Assembly: GCA_045654485.1 (NCBI GenBank)
Contig: JAZONN010000023.1
Location: forward strand, 103,342-167,341
DNA from: Candidatus Enterousia sp.
Lineage (GTDB): Bacteria; Pseudomonadota; Alphaproteobacteria; Rs-D84
Reading direction: 5' to 3'
DNA length: 64,000 nucleotides
Every line of letters begins with the position of its first letter. Position 1 is the first letter of the stretch. Position numbers and translations under genes: made by a program. The notes under the pieces were generated by a model. The model was not told where the DNA came from. It did not search any database and worked only from the letters and a program-made list of their open reading frames with translations. Shown here one piece after another: positions 23,895 through 55,374 of the stretch.

Positions 23895-23941
23895 TTGATA
23901 TAATTGTTTTGATGTGATGAGATTTGTTTTTTGTTGGGTGC

Positions 23942-36700: not shown

Positions 36701-38949
36701 GAAAGGGGATTAATTTCCAAGATGTGATTATTAATGATGGTACTTTGTCATTGGATTCCAATTCGATGCTTGTTGATGTTGTGTCTATGACAATCAATGG
36801 CGGAAATTTGGTTTTGGATGGTGCGGGCTTTGTAACGGATGGCGCAATTGATACGGGCGCAATGCTGTACCAACAGTATGTGTCTGAATTGGCATCCAAA
36901 GATATCAATGTTGTAGCCGATAAATATACAATGACAATGTCGGCATTAGATGTTGCAGGTGTTCATCAGCAAAGCGGTCAGATGACCATTAATACAAATT
37001 CTATTAATGTTGATGGTGATATTGTTGCGACGGATTTGCGCTTTGTGGCGCCAATTGATGATATGGGACAGACCATATGGCAAAATGTTAATGTTGGTGG
37101 CAATGTTTCTGGTGGTGTAGAATTTTTGGGACTAGAAAAAATGACGATTGCCGGTGATTATACTTTTGATGCAAACAGTAAAATTAATGCGGCGATTTTA
37201 CCATATGCAAATGGTTTAGGGCTGAATACAACCGATATTAACTATTGGGCAACGGTCAGTTTAAATGACGATGATACGTTGGGACGGATTACAAATGCGG
37301 ACGATGGTGCGGCGTTGATAACCGTTGGTGGTTCGTTCAAATCGGGTGTGGTTTATGATGATGCCGCGTTTGGTTTGAATAATACCGCGGCGCAATTGGG
37401 TGAAGGTCAAATTGGAATTTCTTTGTTCGATGTTGTTGACCAAGGTACGGCGATTTGGTTGTTGTATGCCGATAATGGTGTTTATAATTTCAGCCAATTG
37501 GAACAAATGCGTAATTTGAACGTGAATTTCTGTAATGCGGATGGTTCTATTTGTTATAACTATTTAGATATGTTGGATGGTAATAATGGAACGGCTGCAG
37601 ATGGGGATGAAGCAACCGATTTGCCGGCGTATGTATCTGTACGTGATACCGATTCGGATGGTACAGCGGATAGTTTATATGTCGTGTTTGATCCAAGATT
37701 TGGTGGGCCAGTTTTGTTGGATAATATGAAGATTCAGCCGATTGTTGCACGTGAATCATATCACACCACGGGTGAATATGTATCGGCCGGTGCATTGGAT
37801 GATTTGTTGGTCGGTCAGGTTCATAACAAGAAGTTCTTTAATCGTACACCGATTGAAATAATTCCATTGGTATTTGAAGATTCGAATATATCTGAAATGG
37901 CGAATGAATTGTATAATCGTATGGAATACTATGTTGAAACATCTGATGGTGCGCCGTTGGCACGGTTTAGTCGTCTATTCCAAGTGCGTGAATTGGAACA
38001 AATTGCCGGTGGTATTTCATTGAATGAACATACTTCGTTCCGTTCGTTCGAAGACCGTATGTTTGATGAATTTATATGGAATCGCAATCGCCAATTGAAA
38101 AAGGCATGGGTTGATGTGGATTATGGTATGTTCTATCAGAACATTGATGATGGTAAGCATACCGATGGAAATCGTTTTGCGATTTCGGGTGGATTTGATT
38201 GGCAAGAAACGGATACATTGGTTTTGGGATTGACGGGTCGTGTGTCCCATACCGCATCCGCGGCATCAGATAATATGGATTTAAGTTATGCCGACGTTGT
38301 GCAAACGGGCGACGTTAAAATCGATGTTGCCGATACAGATATTGCAGTTGGTGGCTATATGATGAAAATTTTGGGTGAAAAAACACGTCTTTATGGAAAT
38401 GCGTTTGCAGATTTGCACTTCTTTGATGTCAATCGTTTTCAAACCTATGTTGATCCAATTGACGGCGATGGTATGGCGTTCAGTTTGATTTCCGAATGGG
38501 GGTTAATGCACGATATATTAAATCAATATATTGTGGGTAATGCATATGCACGTATCGGATATAACTTTGGTTTTAGTATTAAAGAACAGACCAAAGAAGA
38601 AGATTATATGCATTTGAAATCAGATGGCTATATGATTTTGACACCGGGGTATTCATTGACCGCACAAAAGAAAATCTATCCATCTGCGTGGTTCCAGATT
38701 CGACCATATGCATCGGTTGGTGTGGAATATGACGTATTGGGTGCGCCGGATTATGCGGAATATAAATTCTCGGTTGCGGAACGTTTTACAAATTATGACA
38801 TCGATATTAATCCATTGTGGGCGAATATCGGTGGTGGTGTGGAAATGTTGTCTGCACATGGGTTACAGTTGGGATTGGATTATAGGTATCAATATAATCA
38901 AGATATCCAATTACATAACATCAAGGTATCAGGATCGTATAGATTTTAA
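33760..38949 (+). CDS. classical (type Va) autotransporter with a ~1400-aa repetitive passenger
   Basis: ORF from TTG 33742; ATG 33760 gives MIKKLISFACCLLPMGAGAA. Gly/Asn/Val-rich beta-helix-like repeats. The C-terminal ~280 aa is a beta-barrel ending ...IKVSGSYRF. Confidence 0.85.
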   Translation: MIKKLISFACCLLPMGAGAAVVVNPDGSNAFVSTTQDAWVNAGGASITINSPQVISLVAENGFNLSNNMYIGAQNDQGSQNGNLYVLNTVGGGNNAFTISNGGTVSVGAMLQVLDGWTLGLQGAGNNAAFDFGSIDNGGKIVAQNVAEFTSGSIENSGQLDLDVVGNVTAGMLSANSGSFDINAGGDIEIAGVVNSSNSNNAIGATGGVFFGSDVQSNDGVLNVAAGGDVSVGGNLYHSGQKLSIAGGAFNVVGTMKNDLQNGAIVLNVNSLAVNGGTESTYSMVNNGDFYATVYGDTYLEYGMNLTGMGKDNEFSLDTGTLTFGANASSDTWFSAFANKLNNFNLAVRDGDIALGNYAAGVLNGADGNVNANMQLLAQNVYVTNVRNNGGSLIIKAADLDDGYDVVAPAMATMVGNIVVGDQVVGAAGSNTQLIASNALNVQGGVANSGAMTLNSNSVEIVSGVSNSGVGAVLNITSLTDKSGTVIIDGNLTNTDGLVNVNAKNVGIGGTLVNSSGTVNVTGSDLDGGSVYFGGINANGGVINLDALAGNVAVNSAIIVSNGALNLGGGIRNLDVDGAVQIDGNLTASANAAVGSGDVNIAATGTVPFVMNSSAVVVKGDVDVTDDAVVRNVQLDSSLVSVEGNVDVANKGYLTLGASGNSAVVNVGQSVNVSNSGTLENFANNFTAGTIGGNGLIITHGENITANAGDIDIAGGLVVDSARADLPTTGLITRDTNTVNITTTAAGADIKFVTVDVASGNTLNFDAADALNIAGTIVNSGNLMADAGGVIVGGALDNKSVAVFAGQNITFAGVNNVGDLELTATDGDINLSNVTTSGDLTINGNAGALMSAYNQTDGVTDINVDAVSAQSFVVNGDVNTVANITANTMTVDGNVRVAGNVSQGGADAMLNLSIGQLNANNLMFAQNFDIVTGDTDYNIGTNVSVDGNMNVADTASASFVLGGGFSAADVINAGNLYLNAGKGINFQDVIINDGTLSLDSNSMLVDVVSMTINGGNLVLDGAGFVTDGAIDTGAMLYQQYVSELASKDINVVADKYTMTMSALDVAGVHQQSGQMTINTNSINVDGDIVATDLRFVAPIDDMGQTIWQNVNVGGNVSGGVEFLGLEKMTIAGDYTFDANSKINAAILPYANGLGLNTTDINYWATVSLNDDDTLGRITNADDGAALITVGGSFKSGVVYDDAAFGLNNTAAQLGEGQIGISLFDVVDQGTAIWLLYADNGVYNFSQLEQMRNLNVNFCNADGSICYNYLDMLDGNNGTAADGDEATDLPAYVSVRDTDSDGTADSLYVVFDPRFGGPVLLDNMKIQPIVARESYHTTGEYVSAGALDDLLVGQVHNKKFFNRTPIEIIPLVFEDSNISEMANELYNRMEYYVETSDGAPLARFSRLFQVRELEQIAGGISLNEHTSFRSFEDRMFDEFIWNRNRQLKKAWVDVDYGMFYQNIDDGKHTDGNRFAISGGFDWQETDTLVLGLTGRVSHTASAASDNMDLSYADVVQTGDVKIDVADTDIAVGGYMMKILGEKTRLYGNAFADLHFFDVNRFQTYVDPIDGDGMAFSLISEWGLMHDILNQYIVGNAYARIGYNFGFSIKEQTKEEDYMHLKSDGYMILTPGYSLTAQKKIYPSAWFQIRPYASVGVEYDVLGAPDYAEYKFSVAERFTNYDIDINPLWANIGGGVEMLSAHGLQLGLDYRYQYNQDIQLHNIKVSGSYRF

Positions 38950-38981
38950 AAAAATCCCCCATAAATTGGGGGATTTTTTTG
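38948..38981. terminator. bidirectional terminator shared by the two convergent adhesin genes
   Basis: AATCCCCC-ATAAATT-GGGGGATT, flanked by A- and T-runs. Confidence 0.75.
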
Positions 38982-38993
38982 TTTGTACAGATT

Positions 38994-40709
38994 TTAGAAC
39001 AATTTGAATTTGTAATTTGTTCCCGCACGGAATGTGACGTTGGAATCTGCCAAACCTGCGGCGGCATTTACAGACCAATTATCGGTTAAGCCCATTGCCG
39101 CACCCAATGCAACGGCTGATTGGCTGTTATAGTATCCGTAACCACCACCAACAGAAACTTCGCCTTTGGCAACATTAGATACCGCAACAGAAGACATTGC
39201 TGCTGCACTTGCGATACCAGCTGACAAATCTTCTTCTAATGCGTCGACTTTTTTGTCGGTGTAATTGTATGCCGAGTTCAAAGACATGCTGTTCTTGGCA
39301 TCAGCATATGCTTTTGCAGCCGATAATGTCATTTCATCGCCTGCGATACGATTTGCAACTTCTTCTTCGATTGCCGATGTGTTCAAAGCAATTTTGCCGT
39401 CTAATTCTGCTTCTGCGGCTGTTGCACGTGCAACTTCGGTTTCAATCGCTGTTTTATTTGCGGCAATATTTGTTGCGTTTGTTTCAATTGCGGCTTTGTT
39501 TGCTGCGATGTTTGTTGTATTTGTTGCAATATCAGACGTGTTTTTTGATACTGCACTATCAAGTGTATTAATCGCACCAGTGAACGTCGTTTCGTTGCCG
39601 GCAATTACACCTGTCAAAGCATCGGATACCGCATTTGAATTTGCTGATTCGATACCCAATGTATTATCAACCCATTGTTGTTTTTCTGCAAAGACCGCTT
39701 CTGCGTCTGTGATGCTTACTTTTTGATCTAATTCGGAACGGATTGCGCCGCCTTCGGCCAATGCACTATCAATTGCGTTATTGGCACCGTTGGTTATTGT
39801 TTCTAAAATTGGTGCATCATAAACGTCTTTGGCTGCTTGATACAGGTCGCCGTTTGCAACAAAGGCGTCTGCGGCGGCTTGTTGATTTGCCTGTGCTGCT
39901 GCCAATTTTGATGTTGCTTCACCAACAGTTGCAAAATAACCGTCTAATTCGGCAATTTTATCGCTGTCGTCATTAAATACGGTTTCTGCCTTGTCAAAAT
40001 TCGCTTTTTCTGTTGCCCAATTGGCCCCAGTGTCTGCAACAGCGGCATCAACGGCGGCTTTATCTGTATTATATGCGTCACGAACATCTGTTAGTAATTC
40101 AAACAAAGCGCCGGATGTTGGTTCTTCTTGCGGTATGCCATTTAATGTATATTGCGTACCGTCGGCAGACAATTTCAATGTTTGACCTTCGTATTCAAAC
40201 GAATACATAGAGCCATCAAATGTTGTGTCGGTTGCACCATTTGTAATGGTCACTTCTGTGCCACCTGCATAGTCAGACAAGGTGTGTGTTGCAACCATAT
40301 TTTGAGCGTTTTCGCCCAATACAACGGTTTCGCCAGCCCCGTTTACGTATGTATAGTTGTCACGAACAGCTGTTTCGCCGGCGGCAATTGTTTGGGTGCT
40401 AATGACATCGCCTGATGCTGTTGATGTTCCTGTGTATGCAGAAATGTCCGGTGTTCCATCTTGTAGAGTTTTTGTTGTGCCATCTACATCCGTATATGTA
40501 AAATCTGTTAATGACGGTTCTGAATTATACGCAATATCTGATGCGGTTGTTCCATCTGATCTGACGTAATTATATGTTGTATTTGCAACGCCGTCTGCAA
40601 CATTCATATCGTCGTTATACATGCCACTAAATGACACGTCTGTTGCGGCAATTGCTGGACACGACATGGTAATCGCAACCAGCGAAGTTAAAATAAAAGT
40701 TTTTTTCAT
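38994..40709 (-). CDS. trimeric autotransporter adhesin (YadA-like, type Vc)
   Basis: 571 aa with a signal peptide. Stalk repeats TNTTNIAANKAAIETNATNIAANKTAIE. C-terminal YadA anchor ...AAMSSVAVSNVAKGEVSVGGGYGYYNSQSAVALGAAM...FRAGTNYKFKLF. Confidence 0.85.
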   Translation of the reverse strand: MKKTFILTSLVAITMSCPAIAATDVSFSGMYNDDMNVADGVANTTYNYVRSDGTTASDIAYNSEPSLTDFTYTDVDGTTKTLQDGTPDISAYTGTSTASGDVISTQTIAAGETAVRDNYTYVNGAGETVVLGENAQNMVATHTLSDYAGGTEVTITNGATDTTFDGSMYSFEYEGQTLKLSADGTQYTLNGIPQEEPTSGALFELLTDVRDAYNTDKAAVDAAVADTGANWATEKANFDKAETVFNDDSDKIAELDGYFATVGEATSKLAAAQANQQAAADAFVANGDLYQAAKDVYDAPILETITNGANNAIDSALAEGGAIRSELDQKVSITDAEAVFAEKQQWVDNTLGIESANSNAVSDALTGVIAGNETTFTGAINTLDSAVSKNTSDIATNTTNIAANKAAIETNATNIAANKTAIETEVARATAAEAELDGKIALNTSAIEEEVANRIAGDEMTLSAAKAYADAKNSMSLNSAYNYTDKKVDALEEDLSAGIASAAAMSSVAVSNVAKGEVSVGGGYGYYNSQSAVALGAAMGLTDNWSVNAAAGLADSNVTFRAGTNYKFKLF

Positions 40710-40734
40710 TTTCTTTTCCCTTTTTCGTTTAATT

Positions 40735-40996
40735 AAACAAAAACCGTCAAAGGAATTTGACGGTCAGGGGGTTAAGAAAATCATATACTTGAATGACCCC
40801 CTTGGCCTTTACGCATGTGCGCTGTTGTATAGCCAAGGGCCCCCCGACCAGAAATCGGGTAGAATTTTTTGCAAAATAAAAAGCGCATCCGCGCTGTATT
40901 CTATATTTTGCACAGTCGGATAAAACAATGCCATAAAAGACACCGCAAGTATATAGGATTTCTTACGTCCCCGAGCCAACATCCCTGTTGATTCAT
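40735..40996 (-). ncRNA. structured leader/ncRNA, copy B (paralogue of 23639..23860), ending in an intrinsic terminator
   Basis: Helix 1 pairs 40954-40946 with 40791-40783 (ATATACTTG/CAAGTATAT). Helix 2 pairs 40849-40840 with 40771-40762 (GGTCGGGGGG/CCCCCTGACC). Terminal hairpin is ACCGTCAA-ATTCCT-TTGACGGT followed by TTTGTTT. An extra internal terminator-like hairpin lies at 40873-40895. Confidence 0.45.
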
Positions 40997-41001
40997 TTTT
41001 A

Positions 41002-41030
41002 ATGATATATTTTTAGAGACAAAAAATCAA
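41002..41030 (-). promoter_or_regulatory. candidate promoter of leader/ncRNA copy B
   Basis: On the minus strand, TTGATT (41030-41025), 17-nt spacer, TATCAT (41007-41002). Confidence 0.35.
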
Positions 41031-41089
41031 CATAAAAACAAATTATTTAACTGATTTCTAATGCCATTGTGTTATTTTCTTGACTTTTT

Positions 41090-41118
41090 TGTCAATTTAT
41101 TGTATAATACTGTCAACA
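41090..41118 (+). promoter_or_regulatory. consensus sigma70 promoter of rho
   Basis: TTGACT (41090-95), 17-nt spacer with TG at 41111-12, TATAAT (41113-18), 45 nt before the ATG. Confidence 0.6.
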
Positions 41119-41162
41119 AAGGTGCGGTTCCGTAACCTAAAACTTCCACAAAAGGATTATTT

Positions 41163-42431
41163 ATGCATATTAATGAATTAAAGGCCAAGAGCCCACAACA
41201 ACTGCTGAAAATGGCAGAAGATATGGGAATTGAAAATCCATCGCAATTAAATGTACAGCAATTGCGCTTTGCGGTTATGCGTGTTTTTGCCGCAGATAAG
41301 AAAGTGACTTTAATCGGTGATGGTGTGTTGGAACGTATGCAAGACGGATTTGGTTTCTTGCGTGCGCCGGAATCTAATTATTTGGCGGGGCCGGATGATT
41401 TGTACGTGTCGCCAAATTTGATTAAAAAATATGGTTTGAAAACCGGTGACTATGTCGAAGGACAAATCCAAGCGCCGGCCGCAGAAACAGAAAGATATTT
41501 TGCACTTGAAACAATCGAACGTGTAAATGGTGATAATCCGGAAAAATTAAAACATCGTGTTTCTTTTGATGATATGACGCCATTATATCCAGATGAACAA
41601 TTGAAAATGGAAGTGGCGGATGACAAAGACAAAGGTCGTAATTTGTCGGCACGTGTTATCGATTTGATTTCGCCAACCGGTAAAGGTCAACGTTCTTTGA
41701 TTGTTGCGCCGCCACGTACCGGTAAAACCGTTATGTTACAGAATATTGCGCACAGTATCGCAACAAATTATCCGGATGTAAAATTAATCGTATTATTGAT
41801 TGATGAACGACCCGAAGAAGTTACCGATATGCAACGCAGCGTAAAGGGCGAAGTTATTTCATCGACCTTTGATGAACCGGCCGCACGCCATATCCAAGTT
41901 GCAGAAATGGTTATTGAAAAAGCCAAACGATTGGTCGAAGCCGGTCAAGATGTTGTTATCTTGTTGGATTCTATTACACGTTTGGGACGTGCATATAATA
42001 CCTGTGTTCCATCCAGTGGTAAAGTTTTAACCGGTGGTGTCGATGCGTATGCGTTGCAAAGACCAAAGCGTTTCTTTGGTGCGGCACGTAATATCGAAGG
42101 TGGTGGTTCTTTGACAATTATTGCAACTGCATTGGTTGATACGGGTTCAAAAATGGACGAAGTTATCTTTGAAGAATTCAAAGGTACGGGTAACAGCGAA
42201 ATCATTTTGGATCGCAAATTGTCCGATAAACGTGTATATCCGGCGATTGATATCACCAAATCCGGCACACGCAAAGAAGATTTGTTGGTTGGTAAAGATA
42301 TATTGTCAAAAATGTATGTTTTGCGTCGTATCATTAATCCAATGGGCACATTAGAAGCCATGGAATTCTTGTTGGATAAACTGCGTTTGACGAAGACGAA
42401 TAGTGATTTCTTTTCGTCCATGAACCAGTAA
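41163..42431 (+). CDS. rho: transcription termination factor Rho
   Basis: 422 aa. [26 protein letters not shown]-loop [10 protein letters not shown], and ...RKEDLL... near the C-terminus. Confidence 0.97.
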
Positions 42432-42441
42432 AATTAAATCT

Positions 42442-42616
42442 AATGGCGCATCTAAATCGTAATGGGATTGATTTGTGTATCGTTTGTACACTACGTCAAT
42501 CCCATTTCGTTTATCTGCACCATTATCTTTAATTTTGTAAGGTTGCACAATGGCGCATCTAAATCATAATGGGATTGATTTGTGTATCGTTTGTACACTA
42601 CGTCAATCCAATTTTT
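42442..42616 (+). repeat. two copies (42442-42507, 42549-42614) of a 66-nt unit, each a long hairpin plus T-rich tail
   Basis: AATGGCGCATCTAAATC(G/A)TAATGGGATTGATTTGTGTATCGTTTGTACACTACGTCAATCC(C/A)ATTT, period 107 bp. The inner stem is AATGGGATTGA/TCAATCCCATT. Confidence 0.85.
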
Positions 42617-44910: not shown

Positions 44911-46398
44911 GTGTTTCGTATAAAATTATTTGTTGCTTTAGTAATGTTGTCGTATGTTAATGCGTCTTGGGCGGCGACAGATGTGTGGCCATTCCCAAAA
45001 TTTTGTAATAATGTTAATGGGTTAGATACTGTTGCACGATGTTTATGTTCGAATGATAAAGGTTTTATAGCCGATGATACAGATGGTGCTTTTACGATTG
45101 ATTTAAGACGTAATATTGGTGCTTCGCAATGGAAAAATGAAACGCCGTATAAATATATCTTAAAAATGTATGTTCATGGTGACAGGGGGGTAGAGATGCC
45201 GCACTGTACAGCGAATATGGTTGGGGGTAAAATTGTTACTGCACGACATTGCTTGATAAAAAAAGGGTCGGGTGCCAAGGGATTATATTATTTTAAGACA
45301 GCGGATGGCATGGAATTGTCTGCACGTGTTGTTGCATCGGGAAATTGGAACGAGGGGGCGATACGTTCAGATGGTGATTGGGCGGTTTTAGATGTAGTTG
45401 ATGGTGCGGGCAAACAAGTTGTGATGAATTCGGGAACTGAATTAGTCAAGGTTTTACAATCTGGTAAGTATGCTGATGCGATTTTGCCGGGGTTTGGTGG
45501 ATTAAAGGTTATGAGTGACGAAGAAATTCAACGTTTGCAAAAGGCGTTTGCATATTATCTACAAACAATGGGCGGGGGGACTAATGGTGGAAACGGCATT
45601 GTGACAGGTAGTATGGCGGGGTCCAAGTTTATGGAGGATTTGTATGTGAATCAGTTTTGTCGTAACTGGTTTAACGATCCGCAAAAACGTCATTATTATG
45701 ATGAACGGTGTCTGGATGCAAATGGCAAATATAAGTTTTCTGGTTTGAACTATGCTGCGTGTGGTATTGATCATGATGATATATTTCGTGATACAGAGCA
45801 GATGAAACTTAGTACTGGTCGGTTTAGTGTGTCGGGTGGACAGTATACAATGGATACTCAGGCGTGGGGTGGAAATTCTGGTGGTGGGGTATATATAAAG
45901 CCGGACTGGTCGTTGGTTGGATTGGCGCATAAGACGTCAAAAGATATGGTTGTTGGTGGTGCACGTCATGCAAATGCAGATTCTGCAATGGCTGTGACAT
46001 CTGTGGGTAATTTTCAAGATTTGCTGTCAATTAATGGTGGTGATGTGAACGATGATGATGGGCAACAAAATAATAGTGTAGGTAACAATGATAATGGTAA
46101 AGGTGGAATTTTATCTGATAATGATGGGGATGATGGATCAGATGTGCCGCAAAATAAAGGGGTGAACAATAGTGATAATGGTGTTGAAGGTTCCAGAACA
46201 TCACGTGTTGCCGGCAGTGCATGTATGAATGAAGATTTGCCAGAATATGCAACGGCGGGTGTTTATCGTATGGAAATTAATGGCGATTTTGATTGTGGTG
46301 GCAGAAGATGCAATTGTGATGCGACCGCATGTGTCAAGGGATACAGGGTGCATGTTGGGCGCTGTAAGGCAAATGTGGGTTCAATCACTATTTATTAG
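44911..46398 (+). CDS. secreted trypsin-like (S1) serine protease, paralogue 1, with Asp/Asn/Gly linker and Cys-rich C-terminal module
   Basis: ORF from 44851; GTG 44911 gives MFRIKLFVALVMLSYVNASWA. His GKIVTARHCL, Asp GDWAVLDV, Ser WGGNSGGG. C-terminal CMNEDLPEYATAGVYR...C.C....CVKGYR. Confidence 0.8.
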   Translation: MFRIKLFVALVMLSYVNASWAATDVWPFPKFCNNVNGLDTVARCLCSNDKGFIADDTDGAFTIDLRRNIGASQWKNETPYKYILKMYVHGDRGVEMPHCTANMVGGKIVTARHCLIKKGSGAKGLYYFKTADGMELSARVVASGNWNEGAIRSDGDWAVLDVVDGAGKQVVMNSGTELVKVLQSGKYADAILPGFGGLKVMSDEEIQRLQKAFAYYLQTMGGGTNGGNGIVTGSMAGSKFMEDLYVNQFCRNWFNDPQKRHYYDERCLDANGKYKFSGLNYAACGIDHDDIFRDTEQMKLSTGRFSVSGGQYTMDTQAWGGNSGGGVYIKPDWSLVGLAHKTSKDMVVGGARHANADSAMAVTSVGNFQDLLSINGGDVNDDDGQQNNSVGNNDNGKGGILSDNDGDDGSDVPQNKGVNNSDNGVEGSRTSRVAGSACMNEDLPEYATAGVYRMEINGDFDCGGRRCNCDATACVKGYRVHVGRCKANVGSITIY

Positions 46399-46471
46399 TT
46401 AGTATGTGGGGGCAACTTGTATTGTTTGTTAAACTGTGATATAATTCGTAAAAGTAAAAATGGTGGTTTAA

Positions 46472-46882
46472 ATGGTAAAAAAACAAGTTAAGAATAATAA
46501 AAATATGTTTAGTAAGGGGCGTACTGCGTTATTGACGCTGTTGGCATCTTTGGGGGTTGTGTCTGCGGTTGGTATGACGCGCACAGTGGTTAATAATGAT
46601 GGGCCAGATAATCCAAAAGATAAAAAAGAAGTTGTAGCAGATGTTGCACGGGATGGGAATTTGACTGCGAATTTGCCGACGGATCCGGTGGAATTAGAGC
46701 GCTTTATAAAAATGGCGGATGAAACTTTGGCAGAATTGAATAAAAAAATAGAAAATGATGAGTTAAATCCGGAAGAAGAATTTTATGCCCGTATAACAAT
46801 TAAAAATATTAATGCAGAACGTGCAGAATGCATCAGACGCTTGGGCGCCATGCAACAAGCGAATGGGAAAAATGGACGCTGA
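46472..46882 (+). CDS. small N-terminally anchored helical protein
   Basis: 136 aa with TM ALLTLLASLGVVSAVG. Its stop is 3 nt before the GTG of protease paralogue 2. Confidence 0.5.
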   Translation: MVKKQVKNNKNMFSKGRTALLTLLASLGVVSAVGMTRTVVNNDGPDNPKDKKEVVADVARDGNLTANLPTDPVELERFIKMADETLAELNKKIENDELNPEEEFYARITIKNINAERAECIRRLGAMQQANGKNGR

Positions 46883-46885
46883 TTC

Positions 46886-48253
46886 GTGTTTAAGTATTTT
46901 TTGACTTTTGTTGTTTCGGTATTTGGGATGCCTATGTGGGCATTGGCGGACGCAAATTGGGTGGCGGATGAAATTTGTGCCAAAATGAATCCTAGTGATG
47001 AAATGTATTGTTTGTGTAACACCGATTATGATATAGAAATGCCCACGGTTTCTGGGGGGTATAGTATTGATGAACGTAAGTATGTGTCAGATACGGATTG
47101 GCAAACAAAAAGGCCGTATAAGTATGTGTTACAGGTTGGTGAATATAAAGATGGTAACTGGGATGCTTACTGCACTGCAAATATGGTGCGTGGAAAAATA
47201 GTGACGGCCAGTCATTGTTTGGACGAAGAAATGCGTTTTCGTGATGGAAATGGTAATGAATTTTCGGCGCATGTTTATGCCGAGGGCGATGGTGTTGGTG
47301 CGGGGGATTGGGTAATTTTGGAACCTGATGATAATGAGGATATATCGCAGTATTCAATCTCTAAAATCAAAAAATCGGATAAAATGGGGCGTTTAAATGT
47401 ATCTTTGTCGGGGTTTGGGGGACTAAAGGTTATGAATGACGTAGAAATACAACGATTTCAGCAAGTGTATGCGGTGTGGTTAAAAGCGGTTTATCCATTG
47501 GTTGATTACAAAGATGAAGGGACGGTGAGTGTTTATAAGGGACAAGGTTTATCTTTTTTATTTGATATGGATATGTCGTTATATTGCCGAGAAGCTGCCA
47601 GCAACAGTATGTATAAAAGTATTTTTGAAGAGTATTGTTTAAGCGAAGGTAAATTGAAGTATTCGGGTTTTAATTATCGGGCATGTGGCTTGGATTTTGA
47701 TGATTTGTTTAATGATTCAGATAAATTAAAAACCAGTACTTGCAGTACTGATGATGTTCGTAAATTGAATAGTGGTGAGGCGTATATTACAGATTGTCAA
47801 AGTTGGGGTGGTGGGTCCGGTGGGGGCTATTATTTATCGGATGATTCGATTTTGGCAATTCATACATCTGGGATTGGTGCGATTGGTGATGGTGGTCATG
47901 CATCTCGGAAATCCAAGTGGGGTGTTTTTGTGGATACGATAGAGGATAAATTGCCGGTGATAGGTTCGGGTACATCTGATGTGAAAGATAAAGATACAGA
48001 ACCAAAAACAGATACAGAACCAAAGGGTGATAATGGTGATACAGGGGGGGCGTATCCGAAGTTGTTGTCTAAGTGTAATCAAGATTTGCCAGACAATGCG
48101 GTTAGTGGGGTTTGGCGTGCAGATATGGATTCAAAGAAAATTTGTTTGGGTGCAAATAATAAAAAAGTATCTTGTACATGTGGTGTTTGGGTGTGCAAAG
48201 ATGGTTATAGGCGTGTTGGATATGAGCTTGAAGCCAAATGCGTAAAGGATTAA
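46886..48253 (+). CDS. secreted trypsin-like serine protease, paralogue 2, with Cys-rich C-terminal module
   Basis: 455 aa with GTG start. GKIVTASHCL, GDWVILE, WGGGSGGG. C-terminal KCNQDLPDNAVSGVWR...C.C....CKDGYR. Confidence 0.8.
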   Translation: MFKYFLTFVVSVFGMPMWALADANWVADEICAKMNPSDEMYCLCNTDYDIEMPTVSGGYSIDERKYVSDTDWQTKRPYKYVLQVGEYKDGNWDAYCTANMVRGKIVTASHCLDEEMRFRDGNGNEFSAHVYAEGDGVGAGDWVILEPDDNEDISQYSISKIKKSDKMGRLNVSLSGFGGLKVMNDVEIQRFQQVYAVWLKAVYPLVDYKDEGTVSVYKGQGLSFLFDMDMSLYCREAASNSMYKSIFEEYCLSEGKLKYSGFNYRACGLDFDDLFNDSDKLKTSTCSTDDVRKLNSGEAYITDCQSWGGGSGGGYYLSDDSILAIHTSGIGAIGDGGHASRKSKWGVFVDTIEDKLPVIGSGTSDVKDKDTEPKTDTEPKGDNGDTGGAYPKLLSKCNQDLPDNAVSGVWRADMDSKKICLGANNKKVSCTCGVWVCKDGYRRVGYELEAKCVKD

Positions 48254-48376
48254 TGCTAATTGAAGATATTTATTGAAACAACAATGTGCAATGAGTTCGC
48301 TGGTTGTCGATTGGTTACAGTTGCACGTGGTAATTCTATGGGCTGGTGTAGAAAGTCAAAATAAGTTGATGTGCTA

Positions 48377-49618
48377 ATGAATAGATGTGTCACCTTTTTA
48401 ATAGGATTGTTATATTGTTTGTCGGTATATGCCGCAGATGGTGAATTGGTGTGGGATTTGCCAGATATTTGTCAGGAAGATGAATATAAAAATGAATGCT
48501 TTTGTACGTATAGTGCACCGATAAAGCGTTCCGGTGCATATACCATTGATTTACGTAAATATGTATCTGATGCTGAATGGGCGGGCGGGCTACCATATAA
48601 ATATCTGCTGCGAATGATGATACCCAATGAAGATACTGAAAAATTAGAAACACAATGTACCGGTAATATGATAAATGGTAAAATTATAACCGCACGTCAT
48701 TGTTTGGCAGATGAAATGAAGTGTGAGCAAGATAGAAAAAACTATTATTTTCGTATGTATGATGGCACAGAGATACGGGCCAAGGTTGCCGATTGTGGTG
48801 CCCAAAATGAACAAGGTACTGGTGATTGGGTGGTATTGGATGTTGTTGATACGGCAAAGCAAAAGATTGTTCGTGAACATAGTTTGGCATCGGTGGAAGA
48901 TATTAAGGGGGCATATCAGATTAAAAAATTTGCCAATGAAAATGGTAATAAAAAATTGGTGTCGTCTGGATTTGATTCTTTAAAGGTGATGAATGATGCA
49001 GAAATAGAAATATTTCAAAAGGCATTTAGAGCACATCTAGAATCATACATGCCACGTAAAAGTAAAGATGTCAGGTTTTTTAATGAAGGGACTTTGCCAG
49101 GTATGGCGTTTTTGCGTGATTTAGAAATGTCGTCAAAGTGTCTATCGTGGGTACGTGAATATAATCAAACCAAGGATAACAAAATCAAGAAAATGTTTGA
49201 TGACGAGTGCGTGATAAATGGTGAGGTTTATTTTTCTGAATATGGCGAACGTCAATATTCCGGTTTGAATTATGAGGCATGTGGCCTATATTATGATGAA
49301 ATTTTTAATGATAACGAAAAAATGAAAACTAGTACATGTTTGGTCGCCGGTATTAAGCCAATGAAATCTGATGGTAATGCGATTTTGGATGGGGATTATG
49401 ATTCTATGTCAGACGGAGAAATGATATTGACCGAATGCCAAAGTTGGGGTGGACGTTCCGGTGGTGGTTTGTATTTTGAACGTGGGGTGGATGATTTTTC
49501 TTTGGTTGGTACGGTTTCTATGGGGATGGCAATTATTGGTGGTGAACATCATGCATCAAAAACAGCTGATTCTTATGTGCCGGCTGGTAATTTTATTGAT
49601 AAATTGTCGCAGCAGTAA
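48377..49618 (+). CDS. secreted trypsin-like serine protease, paralogue 3 (no Cys-rich tail)
   Basis: ORF from GTG 48371; ATG 48377. GKIITARHCL, GDWVVLDV, WGGRSGGG. Confidence 0.8.
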   Translation: MNRCVTFLIGLLYCLSVYAADGELVWDLPDICQEDEYKNECFCTYSAPIKRSGAYTIDLRKYVSDAEWAGGLPYKYLLRMMIPNEDTEKLETQCTGNMINGKIITARHCLADEMKCEQDRKNYYFRMYDGTEIRAKVADCGAQNEQGTGDWVVLDVVDTAKQKIVREHSLASVEDIKGAYQIKKFANENGNKKLVSSGFDSLKVMNDAEIEIFQKAFRAHLESYMPRKSKDVRFFNEGTLPGMAFLRDLEMSSKCLSWVREYNQTKDNKIKKMFDDECVINGEVYFSEYGERQYSGLNYEACGLYYDEIFNDNEKMKTSTCLVAGIKPMKSDGNAILDGDYDSMSDGEMILTECQSWGGRSGGGLYFERGVDDFSLVGTVSMGMAIIGGEHHASKTADSYVPAGNFIDKLSQQ

Positions 49619-49635
49619 TTTGAATAACTGTATTA

Positions 49636-50544
49636 TTATCGTGTTTTTATAAAGTTTAGCACTTCGTTCCAAACCTGATGTTTGTTTAATTCATTTAATA
49701 CTTCGTGGCGCATATTGGGATATATTGTATATTTAACATTTTTATATCCTACGTCACGCATGGATTGAATTGCGCCTTGGAATTTTTTTTGCGAAATCAT
49801 ACATGGGTCATCGCCACCGGATATAAAAAGAATTGGCATAGTTGGATTTGATACCCGCCAACCATTAATATTGTATGTTTCACCCATCATTTTCATTAAA
49901 TTATTTGCGCCGTTCATTGTAAGGTTAAAGTTGCATTGTGGATTTTGCGCAAATCTTGTGCGTTCGTTTTTGTCCGAACATACCCAAGCACGTGGGCCTT
50001 CGGATTTAAAGTTTTTGTTATAATTTTTATCGGTTATTGATTGTAGTATGTTGCCGCGTGATTTATCAAAGCCGGTCATACATGCGATGCCGGTTAAAAA
50101 ACGACCAAAACCAGATAATGGGTTTTTGCTGGGGCTGCCGCATAATATTAAACCAGATAATGCAGAATCATCATATTTTGTGTAAACACGAACGGCCAAC
50201 GATCCCATGCTGTGTCCCAACATAAAAAGGGGCAGGGTGGAAAATGTATTTTTGCCCCAATTCGTCACGGTACGTATATCGTCAACCAAAGCACGATATC
50301 CGCCAGAATAAAAATACCCAAGGTCAGATTTATCATGAATGCTTTTGCCATGTCCACGCAGATCGGATGATATGCATACAATGCCATTGTTGGATAAAAA
50401 TTCCATCATAGGTGCAAAACGTTCTTTGCATCCGCACAATCCGTGTACCAATTGTAATACGGCAATGGGTTCATGCATTGGCCGACTTACTGTGACAGAT
50501 ATGTTTAATCCGTCGTATTGTGATGTTAAATTTATATTTTGCAT
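49636..50544 (-). CDS. alpha/beta hydrolase (lysophospholipase/monoacylglycerol-lipase-like)
   Basis: ORF 49636..50619, started at ATG 50544 (MQNINLT...). HGLCG oxyanion region and GHSMGS nucleophile elbow. Confidence 0.8.
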   Translation of the reverse strand: MQNINLTSQYDGLNISVTVSRPMHEPIAVLQLVHGLCGCKERFAPMMEFLSNNGIVCISSDLRGHGKSIHDKSDLGYFYSGGYRALVDDIRTVTNWGKNTFSTLPLFMLGHSMGSLAVRVYTKYDDSALSGLILCGSPSKNPLSGFGRFLTGIACMTGFDKSRGNILQSITDKNYNKNFKSEGPRAWVCSDKNERTRFAQNPQCNFNLTMNGANNLMKMMGETYNINGWRVSNPTMPILFISGGDDPCMISQKKFQGAIQSMRDVGYKNVKYTIYPNMRHEVLNELNKHQVWNEVLNFIKTR

Positions 50545-50721
50545 AAATCGCCCAAATAATTCAGTGGTGTTGTTATGTCTTTTGTGTGAATTATATACAT
50601 AAAAAGTATCGGAATACAAAAAACGCCATGCGTGCTGTTGGTACTCTGGCGTATCCTTTCGCCCCTCTTTTTACTGGTTTTAATAAAAAATACCGTACAA
50701 GACGGTATTTCTCATTTATTC

Positions 50722-50798
50722 TGGTCGGGGCGAAAGGATTCGAACCTTCGACATCTTGGTCCCAAACCAAGCACTCTACCAGACTGAGCTACACCCCG
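50722..50798 (-). tRNA. tRNA-Pro, anticodon TGG (CCA encoded)
   Basis: Reverse complement is CGGGGTG-TA-GCTC AGTCTGGTA GAGT-G-CTTGG[TTTGGGA]CCAAG-ATGTC-GAAGG TTCGAAT CCTTT-CGCCCCG-A-CCA. Confidence 0.92.
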
Positions 50799-50949
50799 AA
50801 ACGACGTGTATTATAACAGTATTTTTTATAAATGCAAATTTTTTTTTGTAAAAAAAGTTAAGTATAAGATATTTCTTTTGTATTGAATAATTTTGGATTT
50901 ATAAGAATAATATCCTGTGTTTTAGAGTGCAAAAGATGGATGTGTTATA

Positions 50950-52386
50950 ATGTTGTTTAATTCGTTGGTTTTTATCTTGCTGTTTTTGCCAATTACCTTG
51001 GGTGGGTATTGGTTATTAAATCGGTGGTGATTATTTGATTGCGCAAAGTTGTTTTTGGTTTTTGCATCCTTGTTTTTCTATGCGTACTGGGAAATATCAT
51101 TTTTGCCTTTAATAGTTATATCTATTGTGGTGAATTATTTTATTGGAACATGGTTGGCACATCATTTAGATAGGTTGTATTTATTGCGTCGTGTGTTTTT
51201 GTTTGTTGGTGTGACGTTGAATTTGCTGGCTTTGGGGTGGTTTAAGTATATTGATTTTTTAATTTATAATTATAATGTTTTGTTTGCGGGAAATCTGGCG
51301 GCAATGGATATCGCATTGCCTTTGGCTATATCTTTCTTTACTTTTCAGCAAATTGCATATTTGGTGGACAGTTTTTATGGAAAAACGCGTCAGTATAATT
51401 TCTTTACTTATGTTTTGTTCGTGTCTTTCTTTCCACAGTTGATAGCAGGGCCAATTGTGTCGCATGATGAATTAATTCCACAATTTGAAGATAAATCCAA
51501 GCGAACGCCAAATTGGAGAAATATATATTGGGGGACAATTATATTTTTGATGGGGTTGGCAAAAAAGACGGTTGTGGCGGATACGTTTGCCGTATATGCA
51601 ACCAGTGGTTTTGATGTAGTGCAATCATTGGATTTTGTGTCTGCATGGTTTTCGTCTTTGTCATATACAGTTCAAATTTACTTTGATTTCAGTGGCTATT
51701 GCGATATGGCGTTGGGTGTGGCGTTGATGTTTAATATTTTGTTGCCTATTAATTTTGACAGTCCATATAAGGCATTGGATATTCAAGATTTTTGGCGTCG
51801 ATGGCATATAACTTTGTCCAGATTTTTACGTAACTATATTTATATTCCATTGGGTGGTAATCGACGTGGTCAACGACGTGCCTGTGTGAATATCTTTGTG
51901 GTGTTCTTGTTGGGTGGTTTGTGGCATGGGGCGGCATGGACATTTGTTGTGTGGGGTGCGTTGCATGGTATCGCAAATGTGGTTGTGCGTGTTTGGCATT
52001 GGATGGGTGGCCGATTTGGACGTTTTTGGGCATGGTTTATCACATTTAATTTTATTAATGTTACTTGGGTGTTTTTTCGTGCAACCAGTTTTCAAAGTGC
52101 AAACAAAGTGTTGTCGGGTATGGTGGACTTTCGTTCAATTGAAAATGTTAATGTGGAACAATCTTTGGAATTATTGGGGGCGGACTGGGCTGCTTTGCTG
52201 GGGTTGATTGCTGTGTTGGTTTTTTGTGTGGTGGCACCAAATTCGTTGGAAATATCACGTAAATTTTTAGATTATACCAAGCGGTTTGCAAAGTATATAC
52301 CCGTGATGTTGGCATTGGTGACGTTTTTATTGCTGATGAAAATGATAGTTTTGCCATATTCAGAATTTATTTACTTTAATTTTTAA
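50950..52386 (+). pseudogene. MBOAT-family O-acyltransferase (AlgI/DltB/PatA-like) with one in-frame TGA at 51028-51030; otherwise an N-terminally truncated CDS 51049..52386
   Basis: ATG 50950 gives MLFNSLVFILLFLPITLGGYWLLNRW-stop-LFDCAKLFLVFASLFFYAYW..., which is the canonical MBOAT N-terminus in the same frame as the 445-aa ORF. Confidence 0.65.
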
Positions 52387-52403
52387 TGGGGTTTTGATAG
52401 ATT

Positions 52404-53501
52404 ATGATGTATAAAAAAATTGTTTTAAGTTATATCAAGATATTAGTTTCCATATTGTTGGTGTTCTTTGGCGTGGTATATGTATCTGACCCGTATCGGT
52501 TGTTTCATAACCATTGGATGCATTCGGGCAAGATTTATAATAATTTTCGTATTCAGAATTATTCCATCGCCAAATACTATGATTTTGATGGTGTTATAAT
52601 GGGGACGTCTATGATGGAGAATATGTCTGGTAAATTGGCCGGTGAACGTTTGGGCGGGAATTGGGCGAATTTATCCATGTCGGCGGCAACGTATTTGGAA
52701 AAAGCGACGGTGTTAAAGCATGTAATGCATTACAGAGATATTCGCCATGTTATTATATCATTGGATATGAAATTTGAATCTGCAAATGCGGTTAATAATA
52801 CTTTTGATATGGATTTATATGTTGGGCGTGATACGAATTTGGTAAAACTGCGTCAATATACAAATCGTAAAGCGCTGCGTTGTATATTCTTGGGGCGTAG
52901 GTGTAATTTTTTGGATGGGGATTTAGATCGTCCAAATGCGTGGATGCATAACAAATCGCATATGCGTCGCTTTGGTGGGTTTGAAAATTGGCTGAAATAT
53001 GTTCATGATGACAGTCAAGTGCGTGGCGCGTTCGATGTTCTGTTGGGGCGCGTGGATAATGTGGAACTGGCGGCGTCTATGCGTGATTTTGATTTGGGTG
53101 CGGATGAAATTATTAAAAAGCTATTGGTGCCGTTGGTTGCGGATAATCCAAATGTTCAATTTGAGTTTGTAATACCGCCATATAGTGCGCTGTATTGGGC
53201 CAGTGGATTGGATGGGTTTGATAGAAAAATGGATATATGGGCAGGTATAGTTCGTGCGTTGGACGGTTTTGAAAATGCGCGTGTCTATTGGATGTATGAT
53301 AATGCGCTGGTTTTTGATGTGGCTAATTATAAAGATTTAACACATTATCATCCGTCGGTAAACGATATGATGCTAGATATGATTGCGGGGCGTCGTGGTG
53401 TGGTTGATTCAGAAAATATAGATGCAAAAATTTCTGAATTCCGTCGTAAATTAGAACACTTTGATTTAGAGTTTTATATCAAGCAAATTCCAGAATATTA
53501 A
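52404..53501 (+). CDS. membrane-anchored protein, possible acyl-transfer partner of the MBOAT (DltD/DUF1574-like)
   Basis: 365 aa with an N-terminal TM, 17 nt after the MBOAT gene. ...GVIMGTSMMEN... could be the SGNH-type Ser block. Weak call. Confidence 0.4.
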   Translation: MMYKKIVLSYIKILVSILLVFFGVVYVSDPYRLFHNHWMHSGKIYNNFRIQNYSIAKYYDFDGVIMGTSMMENMSGKLAGERLGGNWANLSMSAATYLEKATVLKHVMHYRDIRHVIISLDMKFESANAVNNTFDMDLYVGRDTNLVKLRQYTNRKALRCIFLGRRCNFLDGDLDRPNAWMHNKSHMRRFGGFENWLKYVHDDSQVRGAFDVLLGRVDNVELAASMRDFDLGADEIIKKLLVPLVADNPNVQFEFVIPPYSALYWASGLDGFDRKMDIWAGIVRALDGFENARVYWMYDNALVFDVANYKDLTHYHPSVNDMMLDMIAGRRGVVDSENIDAKISEFRRKLEHFDLEFYIKQIPEY

Positions 53502-53553
53502 TTGTTTTTTTTGTGTGTTGGGGTTGAATGTTCGGAATTAATAGTGTAATATC

Positions 53554-53577
53554 ATCCTCGTGATGAACAGCGAGGAT
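53554..53577 (+). promoter_or_regulatory. hairpin sequestering the argS Shine-Dalgarno sequence
   Basis: ATCCTCG (53554-60) pairs with CGAGGAT (53571-77). GAGGA lies 4 nt before ATG 53581. Confidence 0.35.
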
Positions 53578-53580
53578 ACA

Positions 53581-55287
53581 ATGAACGTCTATAATTTTAT
53601 TTCAGATAATATAAAGACCGCTATACAGAAAATTGATGACGTGGCGGCCGTCTTAACGCCGGAAATTTTGAACTCAATTGCGGTAGAGGTGCCAAAAATC
53701 CGTGATTTTGGGGACTATTCAACCAATGTGGCGATGATGTTGGTGCGCGTAATGAAGCGTGCCCCACGTGAAATTGCAGATATGATTGTGCCGGCTTTGG
53801 AAAATATGCCGTTTGTCGAGTCCGCAAACGTGGCGGGTCCGGGGTTCATTAATATCAAATTAAAGGATGAATTTCTGTTGAATCCCGAACGTTTTATGGA
53901 TGGGTATAAATCCGATGTGACGCCTTTGGTGATTGATATGGATTACGGCAGTTATAATATCGGAAAAAATTTGCATATAGGCCATTTGCGCACGACGGTT
54001 GTGGGTGATACTTTTAATCGTATTGCGCGTTTCTTGGGACATAAAACCAAGTCCTATAACCATATGGGGGATTGGGGACGCCCAATGGGATTGATTATTG
54101 CATGGGTGTTAAAGCACGGTATGCCACAAAATGCAGATGATATTAATGCGATGTATCCTGCATCTACGGCATTGGCCAAAGAAGATAAAGATTGGTTGGA
54201 ATATGCCCAGAAAATAACCGTAGAATTACAAAGCGGTAATCCAGAATACAATGAAATTTATAACGCTTTTGCACCAATGTCTTTGGAACAGATTTCCAAG
54301 ATTTTAAAGCGTTTGAATATTTTGCCATTTGATGAAAACAAAGGTGAACGCTTGGTCGCAGAATATGTGCCAGATGTTCAAAAGATTTTAGAAGAAAAAA
54401 ATCTGTTGGTGCATGATGCAGGGGCCGATATTATACCGGTAAAGTTGGAATCTGATACTGCGCCTATGCCACCGGTTTTGTGGCGGTCCAGTACCGGTGC
54501 ACAAACATATGCGGCGGCGGATTTGGCGGCGATTTATTATCGTACGAAAACAGATAATCCAAATGATATCGTTTATTTCACAGACAGTCGTCAGAATTTG
54601 CACTTTACCCAAGTGTTCCGTGCCGCAAAAATGGCGGGTATGGATTCTGCCAATTTACAGCATATCGGATTTGGATCGATAACTGGTCCAGATGGCAAAC
54701 CGTTCAAAACACGTGACGGCAGTGTCCCAAGTTTGGATGATATGGTTGATATGGTGGCCGATAATGTGCGCAGTCGTGCAAACGAATCGGGTAAAACTTT
54801 GTCGGATGAAACGGTGGAAATGATTGCTTTGGCGGCATTAAAGTTTAACGATTTGATGCATGATGTGAAATCGGATTATGTGTTTGATCCGGAATCTGTT
54901 ACCCAATTCGAAGGACGTACGGGGCCATATATCCTGTATACGGCGGTGCGTTTGAATGCGGTTTCAAAAAAAGCGGCCGCAATGAACGTTGTGCCGGAAT
55001 ACAATGGGGCGACTTTGGAAAGTGCGGAACGTAATTTGTTGTTGCGTTTGTTGGACTTTGGTCGTGTGACGGAAAATGCGTTCGCACGTCGTGCAACGGA
55101 TTTGTTGGCAAATTATACCTATGATTTGGCCCAAGATATTAATACGTTCTATCATCATTGTCCGATATTGCGTGATGATGTGCCGGCGGATGTTAAAAAA
55201 TCCCGTATGTTCATTGTGAATATGGCACGGGATACTCTGTTGCAGGCAATTGATTTAATGGGGTTGCGTGTGCCGACAGAAATGTAG
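53581..55287 (+). CDS. argS: arginine--tRNA ligase
   Basis: ORF from GTG 53560; ATG 53581 (MNVYNFISDNIKTAI) has the only RBS. HIGH motif NLHIGHLRT. The protein ends in ...M, as is typical of ArgRS. Confidence 0.93.
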   Translation: MNVYNFISDNIKTAIQKIDDVAAVLTPEILNSIAVEVPKIRDFGDYSTNVAMMLVRVMKRAPREIADMIVPALENMPFVESANVAGPGFINIKLKDEFLLNPERFMDGYKSDVTPLVIDMDYGSYNIGKNLHIGHLRTTVVGDTFNRIARFLGHKTKSYNHMGDWGRPMGLIIAWVLKHGMPQNADDINAMYPASTALAKEDKDWLEYAQKITVELQSGNPEYNEIYNAFAPMSLEQISKILKRLNILPFDENKGERLVAEYVPDVQKILEEKNLLVHDAGADIIPVKLESDTAPMPPVLWRSSTGAQTYAAADLAAIYYRTKTDNPNDIVYFTDSRQNLHFTQVFRAAKMAGMDSANLQHIGFGSITGPDGKPFKTRDGSVPSLDDMVDMVADNVRSRANESGKTLSDETVEMIALAALKFNDLMHDVKSDYVFDPESVTQFEGRTGPYILYTAVRLNAVSKKAAAMNVVPEYNGATLESAERNLLLRLLDFGRVTENAFARRATDLLANYTYDLAQDINTFYHHCPILRDDVPADVKKSRMFIVNMARDTLLQAIDLMGLRVPTEM

Positions 55288-55337
55288 GTTGTTATGTAGA
55301 CCTTGGGCGGGTGCCGAATGTGCGCCCGCTTTTTTAT

Positions 55338-55366
55338 TTGGTGGGTATTTGTTTGTGTGATATAAT
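55338..55366 (+). promoter_or_regulatory. candidate promoter placing the transcription start at or next to ATG 55375 (possible leaderless mRNA)
   Basis: TTGGTG (55338-43), 17-nt spacer, TATAAT (55361-66). There is no SD before the ATG. Confidence 0.3.
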
Positions 55367-55374
55367 ATATTGAT

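Follow-up and report, generated by a model that had tools for sequence, protein, structure and literature searches.

A multi-copy structured leader RNA with two conserved alternative folds precedes a YadA-type adhesin gene in Candidatus Enterousia: a putative attenuator related to sRNA-Xcc1

What might a structured leader RNA of 260 nucleotides (nt) do, which lies between a promoter of its own and the start codon of an adhesin gene? The question is raised by a stretch of 64,000 nt from Candidatus Enterousia sp. (assembly GCA_045654485.1, contig JAZONN010000023.1, positions 103,342 to 167,341 of the forward strand; hereafter the window), in which a promoter-to-leader block spanning positions 40735-41030 precedes, on the minus strand, the gene of a trimeric autotransporter adhesin (features of this leader are given on the minus strand throughout). 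The initial annotation called the leader copy B and compared it with a second one in the window, copy A; both copies indeed belong to one structured RNA family with own promoters and terminators, found before genes of exported or surface proteins. We regard copy B as a member of a multi-copy class of structured 5' leaders of ~220-260 nt, and assign a probability of roughly 55% to the reading that it acts in cis as an attenuator, with termination as its default outcome, derived from a c4/Xcc1-type antisense leader.

A search for the motif upstream of other genes of the same genome, as suggested in the initial annotation, revealed by BLAST and nhmmer that the 971-kb assembly contains the element at least seven times, as copy A (window 23640-23857), as copy B (40994-40735), in four more full-length copies on other contigs and in a seventh with a divergent 5' half; paralogues within one genome are about 70-80% identical. 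Copy A comprises 218 nt and copy B 260 nt, a difference of 42 nt that agrees with the ~40 nt noted earlier. When one genome per species was scanned with a pattern, at least 118 stretches were obtained, almost all of them from Candidatus Enterousia or from metagenome-assembled genomes (MAGs) of uncultured gut Alphaproteobacteria, several per MAG. On these loci a covariance model built from six paralogues of this genome (R1) gave 96 good matches, most of them full length and scoring 80-220 bits; copy B reached 160 bits (E-value 1.5e-46, 40735-40994) and copy A 197 bits. Full-length members also occur on three viral contigs of IMG/VR (L124:5256-5436, L125:13239-13453 and L126:4880-5106), two of which carry clear phage genes (terminase and a ParB-like methyltransferase; P2-like sheath, tape measure and fibre), and on both of these the leader precedes unknown open reading frames (ORFs) on the strand opposite to the examined phage genes, in a moron-like manner.

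Conservation of this family is foremost a conservation of pairing. A model-free MAFFT alignment of the six paralogues yields 67 predicted pairs, 22 of them with compensatory changes, and in a model alignment of 101 rows 94.8% of the cells are paired (77.4% in shuffles), two-sided changes are seen in 58 of the 67 pairs and the covariation score is 0.477, compared to 0.185 for shuffled sequences and at most 0.08 with the partners slid. Covariation is strongest in a long-range helix, which joins the linker behind the hairpin P2, holding the elements b1 and a1, to the hairpin that ends the 3' domain, at its loop (a') and its 3' flank (b'); in the long-range helices 3 and 4 all four Watson-Crick pair types appear at most positions (for example, UA31 AU29 CG22 GC14). 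Copy B pairs a1 (AUAUACUUG, DNA ATATACTTG, 40954-40946), the 5' strand of the long-range helix, with its exact 9-nt complement a' (CAAGUAUAU, 40791-40783), and b1 (UAAGAAA, 40965-40959), situated on the loop and 3' side of P2, over 7 nt with positions 40779-40773 of b' (AUUUUCUUA, 40781-40773).

This helix belongs to one of two mutually exclusive folds. Fold ii combines the pairing of a'/b' with a1/b1 (16-20 base pairs, bp), a hairpin of segment 1 (CCCGAU, 40859-40854) with segment 2 (GGUCGGGGGG, DNA GGTCGGGGGG, 40849-40840) across a short loop, which is helix 7 of the model (97.4% paired), and the pairing of a 5' GGGG (segment 0, 40972-40969) with CCCC beside the final terminator T2, the latter being left fully free. 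In fold i, the partner of segment 2 is segment 3 (CCCCCUGACC, 40771-40762), a pairing that closes a junction like that of sRNA-Xcc1, whereby a'/b' become exposed and the first 1-4 nt of the T2 stem are taken. The 5' arms of two helices marked in the initial annotation (40954-40946, our a1, and 40849-40840, our segment 2) both turned out to be arms of covarying helices. As for fold i, its closing helix is 98-100% paired; pair 367:523 (AU41 GU28 UA14 GC7) is specific to this fold and covaries independently of the alternative partner and upstream context, positions 362 and 365 in segment 2 covary with both possible partners, and the fold as a whole, on 49 sequences, is 95.7% paired with a covariation score of 0.282 (0.136 when shuffled). 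Judged from these alignments, folds i and ii are both under selection. According to energy calculations fold ii is the lower one in 93% of the members, by ~10 kcal/mol as long as the 3' arm of T2 is still missing and by 13.5 kcal/mol for the full-length RNA, and it is thus the predicted ground state; P2, in turn, competes with helix 3.

A quasi-continuous duplex of 16-20 bp, which is kept with free sequence and strict complementarity, might alternatively serve as a processing site. The long-range helix (~20 bp, helices 2-4) would then be recognised by a double-strand-specific RNase, the leader would set the stability or the 5' end of the mRNA and the terminators would only insulate, a role that would suit a portable unit placed before unrelated genes. 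We consider this explanation unlikely, as it accounts neither for the selected alternative closing helix nor for the conserved single-stranded motifs (UAUAnAAcA, G..UCA, UGAUU, AAC) and the terminators; moreover, ERLEFLGD, a signature of RNase III, was not found in a crude motif search of the partial assembly, which is weak evidence.

The leader is predicted to be transcribed from its own promoter, starting at the 5'-terminal hairpin P1. A consensus scan detects a sigma-70-type promoter at 41030-41002, just as initially annotated, with the -35 box TTGATT (41030-41025), a 17-nt spacer and the -10 box TATCAT (41007-41002); the predicted transcript start is ~40996-40994. The upstream regions of 90 distinct family members lack sequence homology but present a positional promoter logo, TTG at -36 to -34 and TGnTAAAAT at -16 to -8 relative to the first G of P1, which therefore puts the predicted start of transcription at P1. 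This hairpin (40973-40994, GAAUCAACA-GGGA-UGUUGGCUC) has a GNRA-type GGGA loop and represents helix 1 of R1, 97.5% paired and with two-sided changes in all 9 pairs. It is followed by the region 40955-40972, which contains segment 0 and the local hairpin P2 (GGGA...UCCU, pairs 76-98% paired with some covariation), and, behind a1, by the hairpin P3a of the minimum free energy fold (40946-40925) and the single-stranded linker UAUCCG (40922-40917), kept in the type-2 subfamily described below. A leader peptide was considered and rejected: an ATG at 40996 opens a short frame in copy B only, with TTG, CTG or CAG standing there elsewhere. Further upstream, the promoter of the divergent rho gene (TTGACT-17-TATAAT, plus strand) overlaps a promoter-like sequence of the minus strand, TTGACA-18-CACAAT (window 41066-41108), 36 nt upstream of the -35 box of the leader and ~70 nt upstream of its predicted start.

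Two successive terminator-like points precede the adhesin gene, as had been proposed. The first, P3b/T1, was located by a terminator scan at 40871-40911; its GC core hairpin AGCGC-GGAU-GCGCU (40895-40882) and the U-tract UUUUAUUUU behind it (DNA TTTTATTTT, 40881-40873) are present as described in the initial annotation, and an A-rich arm upstream (GCAAAAUAUAG) is able to pair with the U-tract. The second, T2, is an intrinsic terminator at 40765-40742 with a tail to 40735, consisting of GACCGUCAAA-UUCC-UUUGACGGUU (DNA GACCGTCAAA-TTCC-TTTGACGGTT) and the U-run UUUUUGUUU; it corresponds to helix 9, U-tailed and 98.6% paired family-wide, and its first 4 nt (GACC) are common to T2 and the closing helix of fold i in copy B. 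Altogether, four terminator-like sites were counted in the region, compared to 0.8 +/- 0.9 in shuffles. T2 ends 25 nt before the adhesin ATG, directly upstream of the gene and without space for a second promoter; nearly all loci of the family show a terminator in the same orientation, 15-30 nt before a Shine-Dalgarno (SD) sequence and start codon. In copy B, the SD sequence AAGGGA (40722-40717) and the ATG (40709-40707) open a gene (38994-40709) for a 571-amino-acid (aa) trimeric autotransporter that begins with a signal peptide and carries a YadA anchor at its C-terminus (Pfam YadA_anchor, E-value 1.1e-10), confirming the start codon assigned at 40709.

The internal terminator had been taken for an extra element of copy B, a view that the family does not support. 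Members fall into two types with regard to P3: in type 1 (copy A and most members) it is a single long hairpin CGGUGC...GCACCG with a conserved UUAU-rich tail, in type 2 (copy B) it consists of a short P3a, the UAUCCG linker and a hairpin GGCGC-loop-GCGCC flanked by an A-rich arm and a U-run. P3 includes a terminator-like site, as defined by the scan, in 32 of 85 members; the strong type-2 form is seen in about a dozen, and all 12 aligned type-2 members possess the GC hairpin with a U-rich tail. T1 is also retained in an orthologous locus, L005, whose adhesin is 66% and whose rho is 99.5% identical. Being conserved in the type-2 subfamily and in L005, T1 is therefore a conserved module and no peculiarity of copy B. 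In copy A the equivalent place is taken by CGGTGCAAT...ATTGCACCG with TTATATT behind it, as first noted, and this P3 hairpin with its UUAU-rich tail is the counterpart of T1; the sRNA-Xcc1 leaders of phages have T1 at the same place. For type-1 P3 a two-hairpin alternative was discarded, since covariation favours the single long hairpin. The comparison with a relative carrying the same adhesin, regarded by the initial annotation as a test of its proposal, found the region kept and so did not refute the proposal.

Two hairpins at the start of a transcript, which are followed by terminators, recall by analogy the put RNA of HK022 and the EAR of Bacillus. Such 5' hairpins would modify the polymerase to read through T1, T2 and later terminators, and a 3' domain invading P2 would mean the off state; the competition of P2 with helix 3 and the very long surface-protein genes located downstream in some cases are compatible with this idea. 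The downstream units, on the other hand, are mostly single short genes, Rfam gives no family match besides Xcc1, and the comparison is one of analogy alone; we hold such an antitermination mechanism to be improbable.

The attenuator reading also draws on the relation of the leader to a known family. At gathering thresholds Rfam finds nothing but transfer RNAs (tRNAs) in the window. In E-value mode sRNA-Xcc1 (RF02221) is the sole family matched, copy B scoring 38.3 bits (E-value 6.1e-5, model positions 1-87) and other own copies 42.0, 41.5 and 30.4 bits; the gathering score of 53 bits is reached by none of these, compared to 72.6 bits for a genuine member, L123. In the reverse direction, a model made for the fold-i form of the 3' domain in Enterousia (R2), which scores copy B with 79.1 bits, finds the genuine Xcc1 L123:2497-2574 (model positions 1-85, 29.3 bits, E-value 4.1e-5); the 3'-domain model alone does so, and the full-length model R1 fails to detect this element. 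The sRNA-Xcc1-like core of copy B (40761-40849, Rfam match and R2) is a three-way junction, consisting of the closing helix of segments 2 and 3, an inner stem with a small hairpin and the internal loop UAUACAACA (40839-40799; AUACAA in the family pattern) and a second hairpin, H3' (40798-40779). As in sRNA-Xcc1, the closing helix comprises 9-10 bp and follows the pattern GUCGGG...CCCGAC, and a' and b' are presented by the variable loop and the 3' flank of the second hairpin.

The likeness extends beyond the core. Genuine Xcc1 loci (L128:811-1045, L129:785-1030, L127:800-1265 and L123:2380-2630) share with the Enterousia leaders the order promoter, hairpin presenting b1, a1, T1 with U-tract, AUCC(G), segment 1:segment 2, core and T2; T1 and T2 enclose the core at 40895-40882 and 40765-40742 in copy B and at 858-875 and 980-997 in L128. 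They lie just upstream of a BRO-family gene (Pseudomonas plasmid) and of antirepressor (ant) genes (Mannheimia, Aggregatibacter and E. coli Rac-type phages), and in addition to a1 and b1 they have second complementary sites, a2 at or near the SD sequence of the ant or BRO gene in four of four loci and b2 in three of four. In L128, for example, a' (951-959) is complementary to 836-844 as well as to 1015-1023, with the ATG at 1033. Other known contexts of Xcc1 are the symE gene in integron cassettes of Xanthomonas (10.1101/2025.06.18.660453) and an ORF6N gene in APSE phages, according to the literature. A three-part a/b design was not found described for RF02221 in the literature checked that mentions sRNA-Xcc1. 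What is new here is that the two-terminator layout including T1 is common to the genuine Xcc1-ant leaders, that these carry a2/b2 and that Enterousia has largely lost a2/b2.

Differences should likewise be named. The Enterousia leaders have a longer 5' domain (the GNRA hairpin P1 and a long P3), occur, unlike Xcc1, in at least seven copies per genome, and precede surface-protein, glycosyltransferase and methylase genes, whereas the Xcc1 leaders precede antirepressor or toxin genes. The Enterousia closing helix and T2 have 1-4 nt in common, whereas in phage L128 the helix merely abuts T2. Copy B itself stands at a chromosomal locus, before a YadA-type adhesin gene with rho as the divergent neighbour, and not in an Xcc1 context such as ant, BRO or symE on a mobile element. 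The Enterousia leaders are an expanded form of the sRNA-Xcc1 class and no category of their own.

Since Northern blot and end mapping in Xanthomonas have revealed sRNA-Xcc1 as an RNA of 88 nt (PMC2996969), the Enterousia core might act as a free antisense sRNA of the c4/Xcc1 type. Terminated at T2 or processed, it would pair in trans through a'/b' and repress the adhesin post-transcriptionally, a1/b1 being a decoy; targets would be the 5' module of new transcripts of the same locus or the start region of the own mRNA (b2 in copy B). In line with this are the a2 sites of all four genuine loci, the b2 sites of three of them and the a/b sequences, which vary between paralogues but are shared by orthologues, as private addresses should be. 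Copy B moreover holds a b2-like sequence (AAGAAAAU, 40715-40708), an exact 8-nt complement of b' that spans the AUG, with a2 absent; AAGAAA is found at the start region of four of the seven members with b' = UUUUCUUAA, a b' common to copy B, its near relatives and the Pseudomonas Xcc1, and of four of the 89 others; the sample is small, and copy B and L005 in it are orthologues. Retention of a b2-like AAGAAA(AU) in copy B and its near relatives is suggestive only, and the site is short and A/U-rich.

As a family feature, a2/b2 at the ribosome-binding site was not found in Enterousia by duplex and shared-word permutation tests. The 3' domain against the own start region gave z = -1.9, and against 220 nt downstream z = -2.6, with a further z = 2.4, all of these being weak signals; words shared with a1 are scattered within the coding sequence, away from the SD sequence. 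A 9-nt identity in copy A had hinted that the 5' linker might mask the start region, which was likewise rejected as a family feature by permutation (z = +1.3). The cis partners a1/b1, in addition, should out-compete partners in trans. A free sRNA thus appears possible but doubtful to us, and we prefer the attenuator acting in cis.

The origin of such an attenuator may be sought in the c4 RNA. In work of 1990 and 1992 Citron and Schuster are said to have found that this small RNA originates from the leader of its own target operon (immI, c4-icd-ant, P1/P7). It reportedly contains two short variable sequences, a' and b', complementary to sites on the same transcript, and provides locus-specific control. 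A three-part design of this kind is found in the Xcc1 leaders before phage ant genes. The fold differs from that of c4, and the Rfam C4 family gave no match at E-values up to 10 within 40400-41400. It should also be noted that the Enterousia leaders, unlike c4, have complementary sites upstream only, so that the pairing is intramolecular, and that their output is likely termination rather than masking of a ribosome-binding site. The synthesis of Ant is repressed by c4 (PMC8546580). The Enterousia leaders also resemble attenuators and riboswitches in several respects: a promoter of its own drives the 5' leader, its conserved helices exclude each other, an intrinsic terminator stands right before the ORF, and a genome holds many copies before functionally related genes. 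The ligand sensing considered in the initial annotation finds no backing: nothing specific points to a riboswitch, no known aptamer was matched in Rfam, two terminators follow each other, switching helices with locus-private sequences are typical of antisense systems and not of aptamers, and the arrangement of the parts matches c4/Xcc1-type antisense leaders.

We propose the following course of events. The polymerase would transcribe in order the target module (P2 with b1, and the single-stranded a1), T1, segment 1:segment 2, the junction with a'/b', T2 and the adhesin gene. Fold ii would be the ground state and would lead to termination at T1 and T2; the adhesin would be expressed through a shift to fold i, through kinetic escape or through read-through. 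A protein, temperature, folding kinetics or another RNA are candidate triggers of the flip. In copy B an exposed b' could, via the 8-nt b2-like site, also mask the start codon of the adhesin.

Several points weigh against this course. The start site, termination at T1 and T2 and read-through are predictions from sequence, and most of the counts come from an alignment (A3) that had been fitted to the model and is thereby biased towards the modelled structure. T1 has a core of 5 bp only and its U-tract can pair with the upstream A-tract, so that T1 could be purely structural. The closing helix and T2 overlap over a short stretch, by 1-2 G-C pairs in the majority of members and by 4 nt in copy B, and in phage L128 with its Xcc1 leader they do not overlap at all; control may therefore lie in a step other than competition with T2. 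Given the calculated advantage of ~10 kcal/mol of fold ii, fold i may be transient or confined to a processed fragment. No particular ligand or protein partner suggests itself either: c-di-GMP, CsrA and Hfq were considered, but the partial 971-kb assembly, searched crudely for motifs, yielded no GGDEF, CsrA or Hfq signature, which is weak evidence.

Which genes would be controlled? The shared signal for envelope genes, proposed at first, holds true for many surface and exported proteins, and the majority of the 86 downstream ORFs begin with a signal or lipoprotein peptide; it has to be widened to glycosyltransferases, DNA methylases and unknown prophage ORFs. Most of the downstream ORFs are without a Pfam match. 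The matches include YadA anchors, autotransporter and outer membrane protein barrels, PMP and Listeria-Bacteroides repeats and trypsin, along with many glycosyltransferases (GT2, GT4, GT9, LicD, RgpF) and two DNA methylases, and some of the genes are very long surface-protein genes. Near-identical leaders (85-95%) precede different genes, homology stopping at the borders of the element. One own copy, C5 (L004:3010-3226), compared with L026:1073-1289, reveals a swap of the cargo exactly at the SD sequence: the flanks are 95% identical, a 561-aa trypsin-like secreted protease in one is replaced in the other by an EcoRI-like methylase and a 407-aa HNH-containing protein, and synteny returns at the end of a convergent gene. 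In L005, compared to window 38941-41000, the whole cassette of promoter, leader and adhesin gene is inverted between rho and a 1735-aa ORF, which supports an autonomous promoter. As far as can be judged from the compared loci, promoter, leader and SD sequence form a portable unit. The inverted L005 cassette is flanked on both sides by palindromic terminators (AAAAATCCCCC...GGGGGATTTTT).

Elements that stand before changing genes, are exchanged exactly at the SD sequence or inverted and occur on phage contigs might simply be a mobile DNA repeat, similar to a miniature inverted-repeat transposable element (MITE) or a mobile promoter cassette, with an incidental RNA structure. This we hold to be very improbable: the massive compensatory covariation means selection on RNA pairing and not on the DNA sequence, orientation and spacing to promoter and start codon are fixed, a repeat search found no inverted repeat joining the element ends, and paralogues of the same genome are only ~70-80% identical.

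Regardless of its mechanism, the leader represents a large and very well supported structured RNA class of uncultured gut alphaproteobacteria with tiny genomes, which controls or at least prefaces genes shaping the cell surface. More tentatively, and with clearly less confidence than for attenuation as such, we suggest a domesticated c4/Xcc1 leader, multiplied on the chromosome and turned into a self-targeting switch, whose private addresses and two terminators would set all-or-none, copy-specific transcription of each cassette. If true, adhesins, outer-membrane proteins, glycosyltransferases and methylases would be swappable cassettes of an RNA-based, phase-variable or condition-gated expression of surface genes in bacteria without the usual regulators. 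The orphan family sRNA-Xcc1 at the same time receives a context, its core being just the central part of a longer leader that has complementary sites both upstream and downstream. Since this longer leader stands before phage ant genes, a c4-like immunity mechanism becomes testable in culturable hosts (E. coli Rac-type prophages, Mannheimia and Aggregatibacter phages). The Enterousia version could be seen as a natural experiment, in which the ribosome-site targets are lost and the intramolecular pairing and both terminators are kept, leading from an antisense immunity RNA to a general cis-regulatory module.

Some further repeats were observed in the window. Directly upstream of copy A, a tRNA gene (24369-24442) is followed by ~2.5 tandem units of 178 nt (23930-24442, minus strand), each with a stretch resembling a tRNA 3' end and a terminator hairpin, which may be scars of repeated integration. 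Just downstream of rho, two direct repeats of 66 nt with internal inverted repeats (42442-42614) are 97% identical and 107 nt apart. Finally, trypsin-like secreted proteases, kin to the protease behind the C5 leader copy, are encoded by paralogous genes arrayed at positions 45200-56700; they share blocks, one of which is C.(A/G)N.(M/I/V)..(G/E)KI(V/I)TA.HC.

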